This document shows positions 2,850-58,685 of a stretch of 64,000 nucleotides of DNA, piece by piece (position 1 is the first letter of the stretch; each line of letters opens with the position of its first letter). The position numbers were made by a program, and so were the translations under genes. This DNA comes from Candidatus Komeilibacteria bacterium (GTDB lineage Bacteria > Patescibacteriota > Patescibacteriia > UBA1558 > 2-01-FULL-52-15): the NCBI GenBank assembly GCA_043801745.1, contig JAZDLR010000001.1, positions 24,374-88,373 on the forward strand, given 5' to 3'. A model generated the notes under the pieces. That model searched no databases. It was not told where the DNA came from and worked only from the letters and a program-made list of their open reading frames with translations.

Positions 2850-2908
2850 ATTATTATTATCCTCTCCCAAAAAAGGAATTTAGCCCAAAGTCAATTCAGA
2901 TAAATTCC

Positions 2909-2948
2909 TTGACCCCGTTAGAGGCGAAGCATCTCTAACGGGGTTGAC
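2909..2948. repeat. palindromic element, copy 1 of the TTGAC-CCCGTTAGA...TCTAACGGG-GTTGAC family
   Basis: ttgaccccgttagag-gcgaagcat-ctctaacggggttgac. The same arms recur at 17137, 20391, 21337, 23957, 28396, 40661 and 48864. Confidence 0.6.
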
Positions 2949-2972
2949 TTTTAATTGAATCTGTGCTAAAAT
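2944..2972 (+). promoter_or_regulatory. sigma70-like promoter overlapping the right arm of the palindromic element
   Basis: TTGACT at 2944-2949, a 17-nt spacer, and TAAAAT at 2967-2972. No protein ORF follows; a hairpin plus U-tract lies about 100 nt downstream. Confidence 0.35.
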
Positions 2973-3013
2973 GACTTATGTAGGTTCATTCTAGCTACGG
3001 AAAATAAAAAATA

Positions 3014-3068
3014 AACATCAGGTCAATCAACTCCACGCCAACACCGATTCTGATGTTGGTATTTTTTA
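3014..3068 (+). terminator. hairpin with a T-tract, possibly the end of a short non-coding transcript
   Basis: aacatcag ... ctgatgtt forms an 8-bp stem and is followed by ggtatttttta. Confidence 0.3.
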
Positions 3069-3178
3069 TATCGTTCTTTTGGTAGATAGTTACAACCAAT
3101 GAGCCACCACCTAGTGGGGCTACCAAATAATAAGTTGTGACTAATAGACATTTATAATTCACCACGAGGGTGAGTCAG

Positions 3179-3687
3179 CTAACAAGCTGATAAGAAAAAA
3201 CAAAACCAAATCAACATGCAGGCCCTATCTTCATCCAATGGAAGACAAGGCTCTAGCCTCGGGACCCCATGCTTGTTCCGAGGTTTTTGCTTTTTCACTC
3301 CACTCATCTTGACACGATAGCTAAACAGTGGTAGATTTGGCGCTAAATGTTCCTTGGGCATGTGACAAGCAATAGATTGCTGAATGGCAAAGCGCTGTTC
3401 AGAAATCTTCTCGGGCCAGCTGTTGTGGATCAGATTTACCACTATTAACGGCCCCACCGCCTTGAGCTGCTTGTCACAGTAGTATTTGGTACCGCCGGTG
3501 CGTTTGGGAACTGGTATGTGCGGCCACTACCACTACCAACCACCGGTGGTACCGAAAATAAATTTCCGCTGTGCTGCTGGTATTCAGGCCGACGCCATCC
3601 CTGAATTTGGGCCGCGCCAAATCCTGATACCTTCAGTACGGCGGGATATATTTCGCAAAATGCCTGTCCTGTTTTCGGTGCTAGCAA
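3179..3687 (-). pseudogene. possible degraded GC-rich gene remnant (two adjacent-frame ORFs of 92 and 80 aa)
   Basis: Two abutting minus-strand ORFs in different frames with locally elevated GC. No recognisable domain and no good alternative frame. Confidence 0.2.
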
Positions 3688-3918: not shown

Positions 3919-4950
3919 CTACAATAATTTCTGCGTCACATCCTGCGGCGGCGTCAATCCCATATGTTCATAGCCTCGTTCCGTAACCACGCGTCCACGT
4001 GGTGTCCGAGCGAGAAATCCCAACTGCATTAAATAGGGCTCGTAGATTTCTTCAATCGTTCCCATATCTTCCTGCATCGAAGCCGCCAAAGTGGTGAGCC
4101 CTACCGGTCCGCCGCTAAATTTTTCAATCACAGTTAACAATAACTGCCGGTCCAATTCTTCTAAACCCGCCTGATCAATACCTAACATGTCTAGGGCCTC
4201 TTGTGTTTGCCGCAAAGTAATACGTCCGCCGTCACCTTTGACTTGCGAAAAATCGCGCACGCGTTTCAAAATACGGTTGGCGATACGCGGAGTGGCACGG
4301 CTGCGGCGGGAAATTTCTGACGCCGCGTCATCATCCAATGATAAAGCCAATAGTTGCGCCGAACGCCGGACAATCTGACCGATTTCATCTTTGCGGTAAA
4401 AATCTAAACGGTAAGTTACGCCAAAACGGTCACGCAACGGCGCTGATAATAAATTGTAACGCGTGGTCGCGCCAATAATGGTAAAGCGCGGTAAATCTAA
4501 CCGAACTGTTTGCGCACTTGGTCCCTTACCAATAATTAGATCAATAGCGCAATCTTCCATAGCCGGATAAAGAATTTCCTCAATCACTTTATTCAGACGG
4601 TGGATCTCATCAATAAACAAAATATCTCCGCCTTGCATATTAGTCAGGATCGCCGCCAGATCTCCGGCTTTAGTAATAGCCGGCCCAGAAGTTGTCTTGA
4701 TATTAGCTCCCATCTCGCGGGCAATAATATGAGCCAGTGTTGTTTTGCCTAAACCCGGAGGACCATAAATCAAAACATGCTCAATCGGTTCATTGCGCTG
4801 CTTGGCCGCCTGCAAGAAAATATCCAGATTATTCTTCACCTGTTCCTGACCAATGTACTCGGCTAAAAATCTGGGACGCAAAGTCAGGTCCAGAGTCTTA
4901 TCCTCCGGCAGTTCCTTTAAACTCAAAGATTTATGGGGGTCAACAGTCAT
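3919..4950 (-). CDS. ruvB: Holliday junction branch migration ATPase RuvB
   Basis: Walker A motif [15 protein letters not shown] and the RuvB-type AAA+ and winged-helix C-terminus. Length 343 aa. Confidence 0.95.
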
Positions 4951-4995
4951 ATTAAAGTCACCTTAGCACTAAATACAGCCAATTTCAACCATTCT

Positions 4996-5405
4996 CACGC
5001 CATTGCCATTGTCATTGCGAGACCCATCAGCCTCCGGTTGATGGAGCGAAGCAATCTGTAACTAATCATACCAATCCTTAGCCAAATCATCATATTCAGG
5101 ATTATCTTTTATTATCAGTAACTCTTTATTTTTTCGTGATCCACCCTTTATTTGTTTTTCTCTGGCGAGAGCACAAGCAATATCATCTGTCTCCTCATAA
5201 TAAACCAACTTCCTAATATTGTAGTGGGTCGTGAAACTAGTGGAATCAATTTTATTTTTGTGTTCATAAACTCTGCGTTCGAGATCATTAGTAACACCAA
5301 CGTAAATAACGCTATCAGTAAAATTAGTCATTAAATAGACAAAATAGGATTTAGACATATCTTTACAGATTGCTTCCCCCGCCAGAGGCGGGGTCGCAAT
5401 GACAA
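4996..5405. mobile_element. GIY-YIG mini-element bounded by inverted terminal repeats
   Basis: The left end cattgtcattgcgag-(hairpin)-agcgaagcaatctgtaa (about 5003-5060) is mirrored by the reverse complement of the right end, cattgtcattgcgac-(hairpin)-aagcaatctgtaa (about 5362-5400). The only ORF inside is a GIY-YIG gene. Confidence 0.5.
5062..5358 (-). CDS. GIY-YIG nuclease-domain protein (98 aa)
   Basis: N-terminal YFVYLMTNFTDSVIYVGVTNDLERRVYEHK is a canonical GIY-YIG motif. Confidence 0.8.
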   Translation of the reverse strand: MSKSYFVYLMTNFTDSVIYVGVTNDLERRVYEHKNKIDSTSFTTHYNIRKLVYYEETDDIACALAREKQIKGGSRKNKELLIIKDNPEYDDLAKDWYD

Positions 5406-5488
5406 TGTTCAGATAATAATAAAAAACAAAGACCGTCGTCCCTGTTTCATAATTCTTCCCTTACTTCTATCTTCTAACTTCTTCCTTC

Positions 5489-7987
5489 TTATATTAAAAC
5501 CAACGACGTCAGTTCATCCTCCGCTTCCTTGAAACGCATCAGACGCACACCTTGCGTGGCGCGGCCCAAGATAGAAACGGATTTGATTGGCATACGGATA
5601 ACCTGACCCATCTTAGAAATAATAATAGCGTCGCCGTCATGCTTGCTGCTGATAATTCGCACCGCTTTTATCTCACCGGTCTTAGGCGTAACATTAGCTG
5701 TCTTGACGCCTGATCCGCCACGGCCCTGAACTTTATATTCTTTCACCGGCGTACGTTTACCGTAGCCCTTACTCATAACGACTAATAACTGCTCGCCAAC
5801 CTGAATCTGTCCTTCGGGCAACAAATCCATGCCCACGATCAAATCGTTGCCTTTGAGGCGCATACCGCGCACACCGGCCGCGTTACGTCCCATTTCTCGG
5901 ATATCTTTTTCTTTGAAGCGGATAGCCTGACCTTTGGCCGAGATCAACATAATATCATCCTTACCGGTAGAAAGTTTCACCCATTGCAGGCGGTCGCCTT
6001 CTTTCAATTTCAAAGCAATCAAGCCGCTGCGGCGGATATTAGAAAACTTATCAATGCCCACGCGCTTGATCAGACCATGCTCAGTAACCATCACCATATA
6101 CTTGTAAAGTCTGAAATCAGCGCTCTGTAAAATAGAAGAAACTTTTTCTTCCGGGCCAAGCTGCAGGAAATTCACAATATTAGTGCCCTTAGCCGTACGT
6201 GAGGCCGGCGGCACATCATAAGCTTTCAATTGGAACACCCGTCCGCGCGTAGTGAAAAACATCAGATCATCATGAGTATTGGTGGCCAGGAAAAATTCCA
6301 CCTGATCCTCCTCTTTCGTGGTTAAACCGATGACTCCTTTACCGCCCCTGGCCTGACTCTTGAAAGTATCCGGCGGCAAACGTTTAATGTAACCGTCATG
6401 GGTAATGGTGACAACTGCCGGCTCATTGGGAATTAAATCTTCTGTCGTCATTTCTCCGACTCCACCCTTGACTACCCGGGTCCGGCGCTCATCACCAAAT
6501 TTTTCTTTCAAATATTTTAATTCCTCTACGATGATGCTGGTTATCTTCTTCTCGCTCTTAAGAATATCCAGCAACTCCTTTATCAAAGTCTGCTTCTCTT
6601 TTAATTCTCCCTCAATTTTCAAACGCTCCAGATTAGCCAAGCTCTGCAGACGCATTTCCAAAATGGCTGTGGCCTGACGGTCGGACAATTTAAACTTAGT
6701 AATCAGATTAACCTTAGCTACATCCTTATCTTTAGAAGCGCGGATAGTTTTAATCACCGCGTCAATCTTATCCAGGGCCATAACCAAGCCTTCCAAAATG
6801 TGCGCCCGGTCTTTAGCTTTTTCCAGATCAAATTCGGTGCGGCGGCGCACCACCACGCGGCGGTGTTTGAGATATTCTTCTAAAAAGTTCTTCAGCGTCA
6901 ACACCCGGGGCTGTAAGCCGTCAACCAAAGCTAATAAATTAGCGTGAAAAGTTTCTTGCAGCTGTGTATGCTTGTAAAGGTTATTTAATACCTTCTTGGG
7001 ATAAGCATCTTTCTTTAATTCAACTACCACGCGTACGCCGTCGCGGTCAGATTCATCGCGTAAATCTTTGATACCTTCTACTTTCTTATCACGCACCAGG
7101 TTGGCAATCGCTTCCACCAAAGTTGATTTATTAACCTGATAAGGAATGGAAGTAATAATAATACGAAATTGCCCTTCTTTGGTTTCTTCAATTTCCGCTT
7201 CGCCGCGTATGACAATACCGCCCTTACCAGTCGAATAAGTCGCCTTGATATCATTCCAATTATAAATCACGCCGCCAGTCGGAAAATCCGGACCCTTAAC
7301 AAATTCCATCAGGTCATCAACATCACAATCAGGATGGTCAGTTAAATAAATAATGGCGTCAACTAATTCCGTCATATTGTGCGGCGGAATACTAGTCGCC
7401 ATACCGACGGCAATACCGACGCTGCCATTTAATAACAAGTTAGGAGCTTTGGCCGGCAGGACCGAAGGCTCTATTTGTGAACCGTCATAATTGGGAATAA
7501 AGTTGACGGTATTCTTCTCAATATCAGTCAGCATTTCTTCGGCCAAAGGACGCAGCTTGGCTTCGGTATAACGCATGGCCGCCGCACTATCACCGTCCAT
7601 TGATCCGAAGTTGCCCTGACCGTTGACCAACTCATAACGCATGGAGAAATCCTGGGCCATGCGCACCATTGATTCATAAATAGCGCTATCACCATGAGGA
7701 TGGTATTTTCCCATCACTTCTCCGACCACAGTGGCTGACTTACGGAATTTCGCTCCCGGCTTCAAGCCGATATTCCACATGGCGTACAAGACGCGGCGGT
7801 GAACCGGCTTCAAACCATCACGCACATCCGGCAAAGCCCGCGCCACAATAACACTCATGGCATAGTCCAGATAGGATGTCTGCATTTCCTCCACCAACGG
7901 CTGCAACACTAACGTCTCACCACGAGATTGCTCGGGCTTAACAGCGCCGGATTGATTACCTTTATTCTTTTTAATTAATCTGGCCAT
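5489..7987 (-). CDS. gyrA: DNA gyrase subunit A
   Basis: [28 protein letters not shown] with the active-site Tyr region, and C-terminal beta-pinwheel repeats. Length 832 aa. Confidence 0.95.
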
Positions 7988-19970: not shown

Positions 19971-19988
19971 AGTATTATGTTTGTCCTT

Positions 19989-20053
19989 CCCCTCCTTACT
20001 AAGGAGGGGTAAGGCCCGCCCGCCTGCGAAGCGCAGCGAGTCGGGCGGGGGTG
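19989..20053. repeat. GC-rich nested-hairpin repeat (CCCCTCCTTACTAAGGAGGGG family), copy 1
   Basis: cccctccttactaaggagggg followed by gcccgcccgcc...cgggcgggggtgg. Related copies lie at 54996-55062 and 58600-58685. Confidence 0.5.
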
Positions 20054-20390
20054 GTAAAAAAATAAAACGCCAATAATAACTATTCGCGTTAACGGCCCCG
20101 CACCAAGCGCCGCGCTGGTGCGGGGCAAGCCCCGACAGCTGACGACACTAGATACAGAGAGACACCACCTTTAACAATACTCAATTTTCGCTGTAACGGA
20201 GCGCCCCGGCACGTTCTACTACCCTTGGTAGGGATTCTTCGAGCTACTCTTCCGCACAACTAAGCGGAATTTCTAGGAGACATTACCTAGATCTAGAGTA
20301 TTTATGTTTTCAAATCGACACCCCTTTTAATTTGGCTTTTGGATAGCCATACCGAGGCGCACTTTTAATGTAGCTCTGGGCTTATAAATA

Positions 20391-40701: not shown

Positions 40702-41162
40702 GAGGCCCAACCTTGTCTAAACTGATGCTACTTGCTCTTTGTAGCCCCTTTATCCATCAACATCCATTTCATTTCCTTGAGGCTTGAAACCTCATACCGG
40801 AGTAGCTGCCGGTAACAATCTAATGAGTTGAGAACAAACAGTAGTATCTGTAGCTCGGGTATTTCTGTTTTTTCTTAACGCCGAATCCGTGGCCAAAGGA
40901 TAAATGGAACCTAAATAAATTTCTGACGTTCCGATTCGAAGACCGCGAATGGCGTTAACCCGCCGTATCGAGCTCAGCTCGAGAAGGAGGGTTGTCCGAC
41001 ATTAAACGAACAAGAGAAGAGCACCTTGACAACTGAATCAACAGCAACACCATTAGATAGTGAATAACAATTGAAATGTGACGGTTAATGTCAATTCGTT
41101 GCTGCGTTCTGCGCAGTAACATAACATGAATTTTTTTCGAGCCTACAAGCTCACTCTAACAA

Positions 41163-42775
<1,613 letters not shown>

Positions 42776-42995
42776 AAGGAGATATTGTTCTCTACTTCAC
42801 GGTAGAGAATATTAGTCGAGTCTCTGCAAAGAGATAATTTCATCAGGGCGACCTGGTGGAGACAAGTCTCCCGCCATCGGCGGGAGCAGCATTAGCCGTC
42901 GCATTTTAGTTGTTATAAGTGTTGCAATAAAATAAAATCAGCCGAAAGGGCTGTTTTGTTTTATTTGAAAGGTATATACTTATGTTAGAAAAATA

Positions 42996-44091: not shown

Positions 44092-44168
44092 GGGCGCGTA
44101 GCTCAGGTGGTTAGAGCGCGTCACTGATAATGACGAGGTCGATGGTTCGAGTCCATCCGCGCCCACCA
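44092..44168 (+). tRNA. tRNA-Ile (anticodon GAU)
   Basis: GGGCGCGTAGCTCAGGTGGTTAGAGCGCGTCACTGATAATGACGAGGTCGATGGTTCGAGTCCATCCGCGCCCACCA. Confidence 0.9.
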
Positions 44169-44295
44169 GTGGTTGATAATAGTGATACTTCGTACGGCGG
44201 TAAACGAAGGACACCGCAAGGCTCCTTCTCGGCTAGCTCGAAGTTGCCAACGGGTCAGGCTGAAAATCCAAAACATTTCTCTGGTGCCATATTGA

Positions 44296-44370
44296 GCCGA
44301 GGTAGCTCAGTGGTAGAGCGAAGGACTGAAAATCCTTGCGTCGGCAGTTCAATTCTGCCCCTCGGCACCA
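44296..44370 (+). tRNA. tRNA-Phe (anticodon GAA)
   Basis: GCCGAGGTAGCTCAGTGGTAGAGCGAAGGACTGAAAATCCTTGCGTCGGCAGTTCAATTCTGCCCCTCGGCACCA. Confidence 0.9.
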
Positions 44371-44434
44371 GAGAAATGTCGAGGATACTTGCGCTGTGCC
44401 CGGCCGAAGCCGAGTAGCAACGAGGCGAAGGCGG

Positions 44435-44470
44435 GTCGGCAGTTCAATTCTGCCCCTCGGCACCAGAGAA
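44435..44470 (+). repeat. 36-nt direct duplicate of the tRNA-Phe 3' end (T-arm, acceptor and trailer), 59 nt downstream of the gene
   Basis: gtcggcagttcaattctgcccctcggcaccagagaa at 44340-44375 is repeated exactly at 44435-44470. Confidence 0.7.
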
Positions 44471-44487
44471 GTTTTATCAATCTATTT

Positions 44488-44564
44488 CGGGGATTGGCGC
44501 AGTTGGCTAGCGCGCCTGCTTTGGGAGCAGGAGGCCACCAGTTCGAGTCTGGTATCCCCGACCA
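44488..44564 (+). tRNA. tRNA-Pro (anticodon UGG)
   Basis: CGGGGATTGGCGCAGTTGGCTAGCGCGCCTGCTTTGGGAGCAGGAGGCCACCAGTTCGAGTCTGGTATCCCCGACCA. Confidence 0.9.
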
Positions 44565-44569
44565 CCGTC

Positions 44570-44884
44570 ATGACTTTCTACGACCAGGTTTATCATCTGA
44601 CTAAAAAAATCCCCCGTGGCCGCGTGGCTTCGTATGGTCAAATCGCCAGCTTAATTTCTACGCCGCGCGCGGCACGTGTAGTCGGTTGGTGCCTACACGT
44701 TATGGATAATGATTCGGCTCTGCCCTGGCACCGAGTTATTAATAGCAAAGGATACATCTCCACCACTTGCGAAACGCATCCGGCTGATCTACAGGCAGCA
44801 CTTTTAAAAAAAGAAGGGATTAAAGTAACTCGTAAAGATAATCTTTGGTGGATAGATATGAAGCAGTATCAATGGAAACCGTAG
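44570..44884 (+). CDS. alkyltransferase-like protein (MGMT/Ogt DNA-binding domain with Trp in place of the acceptor Cys)
   Basis: YGQIASLISTPRAARVVGWCLHVMDNDSALPWHRVINSKG has PWHRV where MGMT has PCHRV, which marks the ATL subfamily. The start lies 5 nt after tRNA-Pro; the ORF-track start at 44336 runs through two tRNAs. Confidence 0.7.
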   Translation: MTFYDQVYHLTKKIPRGRVASYGQIASLISTPRAARVVGWCLHVMDNDSALPWHRVINSKGYISTTCETHPADLQAALLKKEGIKVTRKDNLWWIDMKQYQWKP

Positions 44885-44993
44885 CAGTTGACAGTTGCCC
44901 GCCACGACTCGCCGTCTTTGGCGAGGCGGGTAAGTTGAAAGTTGATAGTATATCCCTTCTGACAACTTACAACTTAAACCTAACATCTAACAG

Positions 44994-45067
44994 GCGGGTA
45001 TCGTATACTGGTATTACCTCAGCTTTCCAAGCTGATGAAAGGGGTTCGATTCCCCTTACCCGCTCCA
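44994..45067 (+). tRNA. tRNA-Gly (anticodon UCC)
   Basis: GCGGGTATCGTATACTGGTATTACCTCAGCTTTCCAAGCTGATGAAAGGGGTTCGATTCCCCTTACCCGCTCCA. Confidence 0.85.
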
Positions 45068-46384: not shown

Positions 46385-46536
46385 AACTCTTTCCAAAATA
46401 TTTTAGCCCGCTATACTACCTTCACAGCTGCAGGTATAGTTTCCGCCAGAGGCGGACCCGCCTCTGGCGGGCAAGGGTAAAACCTGTCTTTCCCAAAAAA
46501 ATGTCGTCTTGCCTTTGGCGGGATCGCCCAAAACAC

Positions 46537-46610
46537 GCGGGATTAGTACAATGGTAGTATGTTGGCTTCCCAAGCCAAAGACGCGAGTCCGATTCTCGTA
46601 TCCCGCTCCA
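46537..46610 (+). tRNA. tRNA-Gly (anticodon CCC), with an atypical T-loop TCCGATT
   Basis: GCGGGATTAGTACAATGGTAGTATGTTGGCTTCCCAAGCCAAAGACGCGAGTCCGATTCTCGTATCCCGCTCCA. Confidence 0.75.
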
Positions 46611-54995: not shown

Positions 54996-55062
54996 AAGGA
55001 GGGTCTACCACCCCTTTCCCCTCCTTGCCAAGGAGGGGAGGTCGACAGACCGGGGTGGTATC
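54996..55062. repeat. GC-rich nested-hairpin repeat (CCACCCC...CCCCTCCTTGCCAAGGAGGGG...GGGGTGG), copy 2
   Basis: ggtctaccacccctttcccctccttgccaaggaggggaggtcgacagaccggggtggta, with outer arms gagggtctac/gtagaccctc. Confidence 0.5.
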
Positions 55063-56272: not shown

Positions 56273-58243
56273 TTATTTTTTTCGACCCCGCAAAACCGCT
56301 ATCTGATCCCGCAGGCGAGCCGCTGTTTCAAATTCCAAATTAGCCGCGGCTAGTTGCATTTGCTGTTCCAGAGAATGTAATAAAAAATCCTTTTCTCCAA
56401 CTGATAAACCTTTAATTTCATCTTTAAATTCAGCTTTTACATCCAAACCCTTCAAAGAGGCGGCTTTAATTGCTTTAATAATTGTCTGCGGCGTTATGTG
56501 GTTCGCCTTGTTATATATTCTCTGCTTATCGCGGCGGCGGTTGGTTTCATCTATAGCCTGTTTCATTGATCTGGTTACTGTATCGGCATACATAATGACT
56601 TTACCTTCTACGTGGCGGGCCGCACGGCCAATGATCTGGATCATGGCTGTGGCACTACGTAAAAATCCTTCTTTATCCGCGTCTAAAATAATTACCAAAG
56701 ACACTTCCGGCAAATCTAATCCTTCGCGCAACAGATTAATGCCGACCAAAACATCATATTTACCTTGCCGCAGATCGCGTAAAATATCTATCCGGTCCAA
56801 AGTATCCACTTCCGAATGCAGATATTGCGCTTTGATATTTTTTTCCAGCAACATTTCGCTAATATCTTCGGCTAATACTTTAGTTATAGTTGTTACCAAA
56901 ACGCGCTGACCATGGCTGACCCTGGCGTTTATTTCTTTAATCACGTCCTCCACCTGACCGGTTGTTCCGCGTACTTCAATTTCCGGATCTAATAAACCGG
57001 TTGGACGCACAACTTGTTCTACTACTTGTTTAGACAAACCCAGCTCATACTGATCCGGCGTGGCTGACATATAAACCGTCTGTCCGGTCCTCTGCCGGAA
57101 CTCATCATAATTCAACGGCCGGTTATCCAAAGCGCTGGGCAAACGCCAGCCGTAATCTATCAACATTTTCTTTCGCGCCTGATCACCGTTATACATGCCG
57201 CGGATCTGCGGCAGAGTCATATGTGACTCATCAACGACCAGAAAAAAATCATCAGGAAAATAACCTAGTAGTGTCTCCGGCGGTTCTCCGGCCTGCCGGC
57301 CGGCCAAATGCCGCGAATAATTCTCAATGCCGTTGCAATAACCAACTGACCGGATCATTTCCAGATCATACTTGGTCCTTTCTTCAATGCGCTGAGCTTC
57401 AATCAGCTTATTGTGCTGCTTAAAATATTGAATCCGTTCTATTAGCTCGGTTTCAATATTGGGCAGGGCTTTCTTAATATTAACTTCCGGCGCTAAGAAA
57501 TGTTTAGCCGGAAAGATGCTTAGATCTTTCGGTGTTTCTAAAATATCATGAGTTAAATAATGAACTTTTTCAATTTTATCTAACTTGTCGCCATCAAAAC
57601 GCAGACGGTAGTAATGTTCATCTTCGGCGCTAGGAAATATTTCCATATTTTCACCCTTAACCGTGAAATTACCGCGCGTTAAAACCGTGTCATTGCGGTT
57701 ATATTGTAAAAAATTCAGTTGATTTAATAATTTATAGCGGGCATAAGTCTTGCCAATCTCTAATGTAATGCGCACCTGACTATAATCTTCCGGCGAACCT
57801 AATCCGTAAATACACGATACAGACGCGACAATTAAAACATCGCGCCGAGTGAGTAAGGCCTGCGTGGCTGCATGCCGCAAGCGGTCAATTTCTTCATTGA
57901 TCTGCGTTTCCTTGTCTATGTGCGTGTCAGACGCCGGTATATAAGCCTCGGGCTGATAATAATCATAGTAGGAAACAAAATAATGCACGGCATTATTGGG
58001 AAAGAAATCCTGAAACTCCGAAGCCAGCTGCGCGGCCAAAGTTTTATTATGTGAAATAACTAAAGTCGGTTTGTTAATTTTGGCCACAACATTGGCAATA
58101 GTAAAGGTCTTACCCGAACCAGTTACTCCCAAAAGAGTTTGATCGCGGTAGCCCTTTTTCAAACCAGTAGTCAATTGTAAAATCGCACTCGGCTGATCCC
58201 CAGTGGGTTTGAATTTGGCCTTAAGACTAAACTTATCTGCCAT
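56273..58243 (-). CDS. uvrB: excinuclease ABC subunit B
   Basis: GDQPSAI...GVTGSGKTFTIANV and the C-terminal UVR domain QMQLAAANLEFETAARLRDQI. Length 656 aa. Confidence 0.95.
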   Translation of the reverse strand: MADKFSLKAKFKPTGDQPSAILQLTTGLKKGYRDQTLLGVTGSGKTFTIANVVAKINKPTLVISHNKTLAAQLASEFQDFFPNNAVHYFVSYYDYYQPEAYIPASDTHIDKETQINEEIDRLRHAATQALLTRRDVLIVASVSCIYGLGSPEDYSQVRITLEIGKTYARYKLLNQLNFLQYNRNDTVLTRGNFTVKGENMEIFPSAEDEHYYRLRFDGDKLDKIEKVHYLTHDILETPKDLSIFPAKHFLAPEVNIKKALPNIETELIERIQYFKQHNKLIEAQRIEERTKYDLEMIRSVGYCNGIENYSRHLAGRQAGEPPETLLGYFPDDFFLVVDESHMTLPQIRGMYNGDQARKKMLIDYGWRLPSALDNRPLNYDEFRQRTGQTVYMSATPDQYELGLSKQVVEQVVRPTGLLDPEIEVRGTTGQVEDVIKEINARVSHGQRVLVTTITKVLAEDISEMLLEKNIKAQYLHSEVDTLDRIDILRDLRQGKYDVLVGINLLREGLDLPEVSLVIILDADKEGFLRSATAMIQIIGRAARHVEGKVIMYADTVTRSMKQAIDETNRRRDKQRIYNKANHITPQTIIKAIKAASLKGLDVKAEFKDEIKGLSVGEKDFLLHSLEQQMQLAAANLEFETAARLRDQIAVLRGRKK

Positions 58244-58598
58244 TATTTAAATGCCGTTTAATAATTTCAATCACTTCTTCCGTATTTTCATAAACTTCAC
58301 CATTACTGAAACGAATTACTTTAATGCCGTATAACTCAATATACTTTTGCCGCTCATTATCCATTTCCTCTGCTCCATCTACTAAATGACTTTCGCCGTC
58401 AATCTCAATTGCCAGCTTAACCTCTGGACAATAAAAATCCACCACATACTTTCCAATTCCATGCTGTCGTCTAAATTTATATCCGTTCAACTGACTACCC
58501 TTGAGTCGTAACCACAGCATTATCTCTGCCGGCGGCAGTGAGCTCCGTAAATCTTTACGTAAAGATTTGAATCGGTGTCGATTATATAATTTTGTCAT
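58233..58598 (-). CDS. DUF559 / Vsr-like endonuclease-domain protein
   Basis: KYVVDFYCPEVKLAIEIDGESH is the DUF559 (PD-(D/E)xK-like) signature. Length 121 aa, with the start overlapping the uvrB stop. Confidence 0.65.
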   Translation of the reverse strand: MTKLYNRHRFKSLRKDLRSSLPPAEIMLWLRLKGSQLNGYKFRRQHGIGKYVVDFYCPEVKLAIEIDGESHLVDGAEEMDNERQKYIELYGIKVIRFSNGEVYENTEEVIEIIKRHLNNGR

Positions 58599-58599
58599 A

Positions 58600-58685
58600 A
58601 CAGGGCATACAATTTTTGACCACCCCGGCCTATTGCCCCCCCTCCTTACTAAGGGGGGGGGAGGGGTGGTATGCCCTGTTATTAC
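58600..58685. repeat. GC-rich nested-hairpin repeat, copy 3
   Basis: aacagggcatac...ccaccccggcctattgccccccctccttactaagggggggggaggggtggtatgccctgtt is a three-level nested palindrome. Confidence 0.5.

Follow-up and report, generated by a model that had tools for sequence, protein, structure and literature searches.

The window, by which we mean the whole 64,000-nucleotide (nt) stretch of DNA analysed here, belongs to a metagenome-assembled genome (MAG) of a Candidatus Komeilibacteria bacterium (Patescibacteria) and carries, between gyrA (5489–7987) and ruvB (3919–4950), a compact unit composed of a small GIY-YIG nuclease gene and two hairpin repeats. The unit is 401 bp in size (5007–5407), as delimited by a repeat search and by reading the sequence from 4700 to 5700. 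Its gene (5062–5358, stop codon TAG at 5062–5064) is a 98-amino-acid open reading frame (ORF) on the minus strand, as are both flanking genes. Each terminus runs from an outer arm through a variable GC hairpin to an inner arm. The outer arms (CATTGTCATTGCGA; 5007–5020 and 5394–5407) and the inner arms (GAAGCAATCTGTAA; 5048–5061 and 5363–5376) are perfect inverted repeats, 14 of 14 positions being complementary in each pair, and the hairpins that they enclose differ between the two termini (5024–5044 and 5377–5393). The upstream repeat (5363–5407) lies on the gene strand, reads 5'-CATTGTCATTGCGA-CCCCGCCTCTGGCGGGG-GAAGCAATCTGTAA, contains a 7-bp inner GC hairpin and ends 4 nt ahead of the ATG. 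The downstream repeat (5007–5061) lies on the plus strand, opposite to the gene, reads 5'-CATTGTCATTGCGA-GACCCATCAGCCTCCGGTTGATGGAGC-GAAGCAATCTGTAA, contains a 9-bp inner hairpin and abuts the stop codon, with 0 nt in between. Folded as single-stranded DNA (ssDNA), both termini form a 5-bp closing stem (ATTGC/GCAAT), an internal loop and the inner GC hairpin. The fold of the right terminus has an energy of −12.1 kcal/mol (z about −3.4); that of the left terminus, at −7.9 kcal/mol (z −1.35), is not significant alone.

The slot occupied by the unit has two recognizable edges. Upstream, a terminator scan places the intrinsic terminator of gyrA at 5423–5448 (minus strand); downstream, a comparison of the window with three related loci (L015, L299 and L301) reveals a conserved block ahead of ruvB, GGTTGAAAT...GCTAAGGTGAC (4957–4990, minus strand), which is separated from the downstream repeat by only ~16 nt. 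A sequence-only reading of this DNA had proposed a 98-residue GIY-YIG ORF between structured termini that are reverse complements of each other. The 14/14 arms and a Pfam GIY-YIG match bear this out; the unit itself is real, with edges that move from the proposed 4996–5405 (by 11 nt inwards on the left and 2 nt outwards on the right). At the gathering threshold, Rfam has no match for the termini, and a permissive scan of 4900–5520 returned chance-level matches only.

The Pfam match (PF01541, 3e-15) covers residues 5–78 and is the only domain of the protein; profile searches found no C-terminal DNA-binding domain in its 98 residues. A protein of this kind has been characterized by Chenal et al. 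(2025, Nat Commun, PMC11893778). SsnA of Neisseria meningitidis, a 94-residue single-domain GIY-YIG protein, binds the hairpin repeat NTS (CGTCATTCCCGCGMAVGCGGGAATCYRG) solely as single-stranded DNA, cuts one strand only, a few nucleotides 5' of the repeat, and makes transformation less efficient when the DNA carries an NTS. The characterized members of its family cleave only single-stranded DNA, next to a hairpin. The Ssn family corresponds to CDD cd10448 (GIY-YIG_unchar_3) and has thousands of members, most of whose genes are flanked by Ssn-related motifs (SRMs), hairpins of 20–50 nt (PMC11893778).

Homology of the window protein to this family is evident. In a tblastn search of a 7.3-Gb plasmid collection, it matched two gonococcal chromosomes, once per chromosome, at 2e-11, within the limit of E < 1e-10 that the published study used as its homology criterion for Ssn. 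The matching sequence is a 94-residue ORF in N. gonorrhoeae NZ_CP119140.1, with CCGTCATTCCCGCTCAGGCGGGAATCC immediately 3' of its stop codon and a dense array of NTS on both sides; the two proteins align over their full length by BLASTP (36% identity, 5e-20). In an alignment of 13 sequences that includes the gonococcal ORF, residues Y8 (the GIY tyrosine), Y19 and G21 (of the YIG), H33, Y46, E67 and N86 are invariant and R29 is nearly so; the catalytic residues Y8, Y19, R29, H33, E67 and N86 are intact in the window protein. UPF0213/YhbQ proteins of solved structure (PDB 1ZG2, 1YWL) have the same size and fold class. However, their similarity to the window protein is marginal (E only 0.04–0.37), the window protein being far closer to the neisserial ORF, and no repeat association is known for them. 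PADLOC defence-protein models gave no match at E ≤ 0.01.

We consider it likely that 5007–5407 is an SRM-ssn-SRM cassette, that is, the gene of an Ssn-family nuclease flanked by two copies, inverted to each other, of the hairpin that the enzyme presumably recognizes. What the unit shares with the known system is the single-domain GIY-YIG protein of ~94–98 residues with full-length homology to the NTS-flanked neisserial ORF, the 20–50-nt hairpin repeats on both sides of the gene, which start with GTCAT and end with AATC, and the dispersal of solo repeats elsewhere in genomes. The window termini have the frame of the NTS itself, TGTCATT-stem...stem'-AATC. They differ from it in their closing stem (ATTGC/GCAAT), in a GA(G)...GAA internal loop and in a nested, variable GC core; the host also differs, being a Komeilibacteria MAG in which 64 kb hold the two gene-flanking copies and no repeat array. 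The sequence-only reading had the anatomy right and left the Ssn/SRM architecture, described in PMC11893778, unrecognized. That architecture has been known since 2025; new here is an example from Patescibacteria with a hairpin class that the published motif misses.

Several observations weigh against this assignment. The published degenerate SRM string, HGTCWYN(0-2)YYVSBRHN(0-5)WNVSBRGN(0-2)RNCYNB, has no match in the window and is found in just 3 of the 80 homologue loci described below, as against nine matches in the gonococcal locus. Since this string, a search tool derived from 29 genomes and not a definition of the family, fails on the window termini, their hairpin falls into another sequence class (GA..GAA), one whose nested core is longer. 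The gonococcal ORF was taken to be the SsnA orthologue by its length and NTS context, not by accession. A scan of the window found no recognizable promoter or Shine-Dalgarno sequence between the gyrA terminator and the ATG. Finally, only the two gene-flanking SRMs are present, leaving no visible substrate in 64 kb for a genome-wide role like that of the NTS.

To place the hairpin in the wider family, we used the 80 best homologue loci/species from a scan of species-representative genomes (49–61% protein identity; more than 15 phyla). A descriptor was applied that consists of GTC, a stem starting with A, T?GA, a core of at most 50 nt ending in GAA, the complementary stem and C. Within 300 bp of the gene, the motif occurs upstream in 54 loci, downstream in 50 and on both sides in 44, and its density near the gene (3.9 per kb) is 26-fold higher than farther off in the same loci (0.15 per kb). 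In the modal layout, one copy on the gene strand precedes the start by ~30–60 nt and another, on the opposite strand, directly follows the stop, which is also the layout of the window.

The closing stem varies in sequence among these loci. In another Patescibacteria genome (L001), repeats of the same kind have a different stem, GTCATTGCGAG...GAAGCAATC; in an Anaerolineae genome (L004) they read GTCACCCTGAGCG...GAAGGGTC and GTCATGCTGAGCG...GAAGCATC. When 5' and 3' halves were detected independently, 213 of 238 pairs were complementary, in at least eight stem classes, whereas permutation of the halves gave a mean of 106 and a maximum of 125 complementary pairs in 1,000 permutations. The closing stem therefore covaries. 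Conservation stops one base beyond GTC, with T or C at −1, so that the edges of the motif are exactly Y-GTCA and TGAC-R. The hairpin is thus built from a sharply bounded 5' box (Y-GTC), a closing stem (5 bp, ATTGC/GCAAT in the window), an internal loop that is conserved (GA(G)...GAA) and a core hairpin whose sequence can vary freely. The hairpins lack T-runs, and their unpaired boxes GTC, GA(G), GAA and C are conserved across phyla. Because the published motif misses this class, surveys based on it probably report too few SRM elements in many phyla, among them Chloroflexota, Bacteroidota and Patescibacteria, and every further hairpin class may supply a new specificity for tools that cut ssDNA at defined sites.

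How such a cassette might act can be proposed by analogy with the Neisseria and Wolbachia enzymes; the finding itself leaves knowledge of the mechanism unchanged. The nuclease would bind the folded hairpin only in single-stranded DNA (during replication or repair, or in DNA that has been taken up) and would cut a few nucleotides 5' of it, on the strand reading GTCATT. The predicted cut sites then fall one at each outer boundary of the cassette, on opposite strands. Its role may be to limit recombination of incoming single strands or, alternatively, to propagate the cassette.

The history of the slot was examined in relatives found through RuvB look-ups. A metagenome scan with the GyrA C-terminus gave another 80 loci, all but one of them too distant to serve as empty-site controls; these more distant gyrA neighbourhoods contain neither a GIY-YIG gene nor an SRM. 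The syntenic block comprises a Lactamase_B_3 gene, a 94-residue ORF, gyrA, the slot, CARDB genes, ruvB, ychF and uvrD. Within it, the slot lies between the gyrA-side terminator (AAACAGGGAC..GTC.TTGTTTTT) and a promoter-like sequence (TTGACAAAAGC...TA.AAT), both of which are conserved. In L015/L016 (RuvB 92% identical to that of the window), the slot contains a 210-residue ORF followed by SRM-ssn-SRM; in L301 (85%), it contains SRM-ssn-SRM and an extra gene-less SRM pair. In L299 (87%; 97% to L017), a DUF559 gene with a different hairpin repeat on both sides takes its place, and in L300 (82%) the slot is empty. A homologous terminator lies ahead of the ssn cassette in L015 and L301 and of the DUF559 cassette in L299; in L300 it is immediately followed by the promoter-like TTGACA. 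The cassette was replaced or lost in the L299/L017 lineage, and the presence of an ssn cassette, a DUF559 cassette or nothing at one terminator–promoter spacer provides a natural experiment on cassette turnover.

The orthologous positions of L015 and L301 carry the same arms in the same orientation as the window, around other cores. The identities among the nucleases of the window, L015 and L301 (0.67, 0.57 and 0.61) follow the relationships of RuvB and GyrA, and all three proteins share a one-residue insertion in the 13-sequence alignment, which together argue that they are orthologues inherited vertically. The nuclease, ruvB and gyrA C-terminus genes of the window and L015 differ from each other to saturation at synonymous sites (proportion of synonymous differences, pS, 0.73–0.82). 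The terminator and the SRM arms have nonetheless been kept, and the four core hairpins, though without sequence relationship to one another, all still form GC stems. In the nuclease gene, the proportion of non-synonymous differences (pN) is 0.18 against a pS of 0.82, indicative of purifying selection on the protein; retention of the arms despite saturated synonymous sites extends this to the arms and argues for a long residence at the site. The comparison thus indicates a long vertical residence of the window copy, not recent mobility. The cassette has long occupied the spacer that separates the gyrA terminator from the following promoter, and probably arrived as a self-contained unit in an ancestor of the lineages that carry it.

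The adjacency of gyrA and ruvB, which the sequence-only reading had taken as the setting of the insert, is peculiar to this genome. In relatives, 2–5 kb of CARDB genes lie between the slot and the block upstream of ruvB. The one or two large CARDB-domain genes are present in all four relatives and missing here (window 4951–5006 compared with L015:1520–4000, L301:7906–10000 and L299:5626–10000). With only ~16 nt left from the outer edge of the downstream SRM to the ruvB block, one end of the CARDB deletion lies at or very near a predicted Ssn cut site.

The same reading saw in the unit a small selfish mobile element. The cassette is indeed discrete and missing from the slot in L299 and L300, which supports the reading in part, but the vertical inheritance of this copy speaks against recent mobility. 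That reading had also named, as evidence against a mobile unit, an absence of further termini and conservation of the gene at its position, and for this copy both were largely found. The search for further copies of the termini that it had called for returned none elsewhere in the 64 kb: a 10-mer of the termini, with one mismatch allowed, occurs at chance level, a two-arm search tolerating 3 + 2 mismatches recovers just the two gene-flanking copies, and no other GIY-YIG gene was found in the window. The gene itself is kept at the same slot in L015/L016 and L301.

A stronger form of this idea is that the cassette is an autonomous element resembling an insertion sequence (IS), in which the GIY-YIG protein moves SRM(+)-X-SRM(-) units and gene-less pairs are non-autonomous derivatives akin to miniature inverted-repeat transposable elements. 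We regard it as the most serious alternative, though a doubtful one. Its terminal inverted repeats are those of an insertion sequence, and the likeness of NTS-ssnA-NTS to one was pointed out by Chenal et al. (PMC11893778). The sharp conservation edges at Y-GTCA and TGAC-R fit it as well, and the slot is polymorphic, holding an ssn cassette (window, L015, L301), a DUF559 cassette (L299) or nothing (L300) in relatives that are separated by saturated synonymous divergence. Against this, the window copy is single in 64 kb, and it was inherited vertically across three lineages whose synonymous sites are saturated.

Gene-less adjacent SRM pairs, which form palindromic units of 75–120 nt, also speak for a mobile element, since they strongly prefer the polarity of the cassette, (+,-). 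Among pairs no more than 60 nt apart in IMG/VR loci, 26 are oriented (+,-) and one (-,+); in genome loci the corresponding numbers are 43 and 22. The pair at L301:7801–7905 still carries the 14-nt leader of the ssn gene next to it and looks like an internal-deletion derivative, judging by its sequence. Neighbouring paralogues are 89–100% identical and include an exact tandem duplication of 937 bp, and non-orthologous homologues from other phyla are 63–66% similar to the window protein, close to the 67% of its true orthologue. However, homologous recombination alone can explain the tandem duplications and the slot replacement, and protein clusters at 90% identity are almost all confined to a single locus. 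An apparent multi-copy spread of P0069 across 54 contigs was rejected, as these represent the same locus in many samples.

The ends and the enzyme argue against transposition as well. No target-site duplication is seen on inspection at 5007/5407, nor is there one in 105 (+,-) units, as assessed by direct-repeat excess at offsets of 0–6 and lengths of 2–6; some IS families also lack such duplications. The only ORF of the cassette encodes the GIY-YIG hydrolase, and no strand-transfer recombinase (DDE, HUH, serine or tyrosine) is present in it. GIY-YIG enzymes are DNA hydrolases, and no strand-transfer chemistry is known among them. IS200/IS605 elements resemble the cassette in having end hairpins recognized as ssDNA and in lacking target-site duplications. 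However, their two ends are unlike, and a Y1 transposase cuts one and the same strand at both of them, whereas here the ends are inverted copies, with predicted cuts on opposite strands by another enzyme class. Another parallel in arrangement is that of REP/BIME repeats and RAYT (TnpA-REP), considered a domesticated single-strand transposition system: a small nuclease gene lies between inverted copies of a recognized hairpin repeat, with solo and paired copies elsewhere. RAYTs, however, are HUH/Y1 enzymes with covalent intermediates, whereas the window protein is a hydrolytic GIY-YIG enzyme unrelated in sequence. A mobile-element label thus remains plausible for the origin of the family, while the window copy behaves as a stable, vertically inherited resident.

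A broader proposal carries a similarly low probability. It holds that SRM(+)-X-SRM(-) units might be widespread mobile cassettes driven by an ssDNA-specific hydrolytic GIY-YIG nuclease, X being ssn in autonomous units or a short spacer in non-autonomous palindromic pairs. In addition, unrelated small nucleases such as DUF559, each with a nested-hairpin repeat of its own, might make up similar cassettes in competition for shared intergenic positions, as in the Komeilibacteria slot behind the gyrA terminator.

Repeats without a nuclease gene are abundant in contigs classed as viral. Over 120 stretches of IMG/VR contain the exact pattern GTCATTGCGAG-N6-36-GAAGCAATC, with up to six copies per contig. 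Of 120 IMG/VR loci carrying it, one encodes an Ssn-like protein, and a protein-based scan of viral contigs for ssn relatives gave a single partial match. With so many copies of the pattern and almost no Ssn genes, solo repeats appear to be common, like the NTS in Neisseria. Solo SRMs fall inside stop-to-stop ORFs in 61% of cases against 89% for random positions, a crude test that was not relied on. Across the viral-classed contigs (L019–L138, for example L033 and L054), 207 motifs of the GTCATTGCGAG class were counted in 1.08 Mb of selected loci. In a candidate division KSB1 bacterium (L189:4731–6420), the exact tandem duplication of ~937 bp includes an ssn gene and an array of eight SRMs that alternate in orientation and belong to two stem classes, an arrangement like that of BIMEs.

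A quite different possibility is that the gene encodes a nuclease for housekeeping repair or recombination with a functional link to gyrA and ruvB, the hairpins being ordinary terminators or stabilizers of the mRNA. Its position between two DNA-metabolism genes on the same strand, and the GC-rich, intergenic nature of the hairpins, would suit such a role. We nonetheless find it very unlikely, in line with the sequence-only reading, which had set a housekeeping function aside. Neither L299 nor L300 has the gene in the slot, and the 80 other gyrA neighbourhoods also lack it; its position next to ruvB is an artefact of a deletion in this genome, 2–5 kb of CARDB genes intervening in relatives. Its non-synonymous change (dN 0.21 between window and L015) is ~4 times faster than that of ruvB (0.059) and ~15 times faster than that of the gyrA C-terminus (0.014). 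Simple terminators, moreover, do not need unpaired boxes conserved across phyla, and these hairpins lack the T-runs of a terminator.

Least credible of all is a free-standing GIY-YIG homing endonuclease gene of the T4 Seg or I-TevI type, cutting double-stranded DNA (dsDNA) at an empty allele, the homing unit of the sequence-only reading: those enzymes share the catalytic GIY-YIG domain but have ~200–250 residues with a linker and a DNA-binding domain, cut dsDNA and are without flanking hairpins, whereas the window protein has 98 residues, no C-terminal DNA-binding domain, no intron or intein context and hairpins that this model neither needs nor explains, and its nearest characterized relatives cut only ssDNA (PMC11893778). 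Its similarity to homing-endonuclease models is weak and confined to the N-terminal GIY-YIG motif region (residues 6–41): TIGR01453, which models group I intron endonucleases, scores 23 bits, below its cutoff of 56, and PHROG families of homing endonucleases match at E about 1e-3.

A 13-mer in the right-hand core hairpin (CCGCCAGAGGCGG) had been linked by the sequence-only reading to a tRNA-Gly gene. The recurrence is real: the 13-mer is found again at 46443–46455 (+) and 46458–46470 (-), with 0.05 occurrences expected and a match that extends to 15 nt, and this inverted pair lies 67 nt upstream of tRNA-Gly(ccc) (46537–46610). Membership of the cassette was rejected, since the other sites have no SRM arms (none at 46443–46470) and the shared piece is the core, which is not conserved between orthologues. 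The pattern CCCGCC-NNN-GGCGGG occurs at three loci (5378, 42870 and 46443/46457), and hairpins with all-GC stems exceed their frequency in shuffled sequences ~4-fold (about 12 in the window against 2.8). We treat the 13-mer sites as a separate small hairpin family or a coincidence. The copy at 42870–42884 forms a hairpin 97 nt downstream of the 16S rRNA gene.

The window has a DUF559 gene of its own. It encodes 121 residues (58233–58598, minus strand; Pfam 3.3e-31), overlaps the start of uvrB (56273–58243) by 11 nt and is preceded by a nested hairpin repeat, ACCACCCC..CCCCTCCTTnnnAAGGAGGGG..GGGGTGGT (58613–58672). Two more copies of this type of repeat lie at 19986–20055 and 55007–55061. The DUF559 gene of L299 (L299:5008–5625), which has such repeats on both sides and sits in the slot that the SRM-ssn-SRM cassette occupies in the window, is 47% identical. 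A scan of viral contigs for DUF559 found nothing.

Two further features concern RNA genes. The 16S rRNA match (41157–42773) spans 1,617 nt as against 1,533 positions in the model, and the gene may contain an insertion. No 23S or 5S rRNA genes were reported in the 64 kb and the next genes after 16S are four tRNAs (44092–45067), so that the rRNA genes appear to be unlinked. Finally, a non-coding block of ~400 nt downstream of ruvB (window ~2900–3300, L015 ~5900–6300) is far better conserved than the remaining intergenic alignment, although synonymous sites between the two are saturated. The block has no convincing ORF, Rfam match or tmRNA; it ends in a hairpin, GTCAACCCCGTTAGAG..CTCTAACGGGGTCAAGG, and is a candidate for an unknown non-coding RNA.

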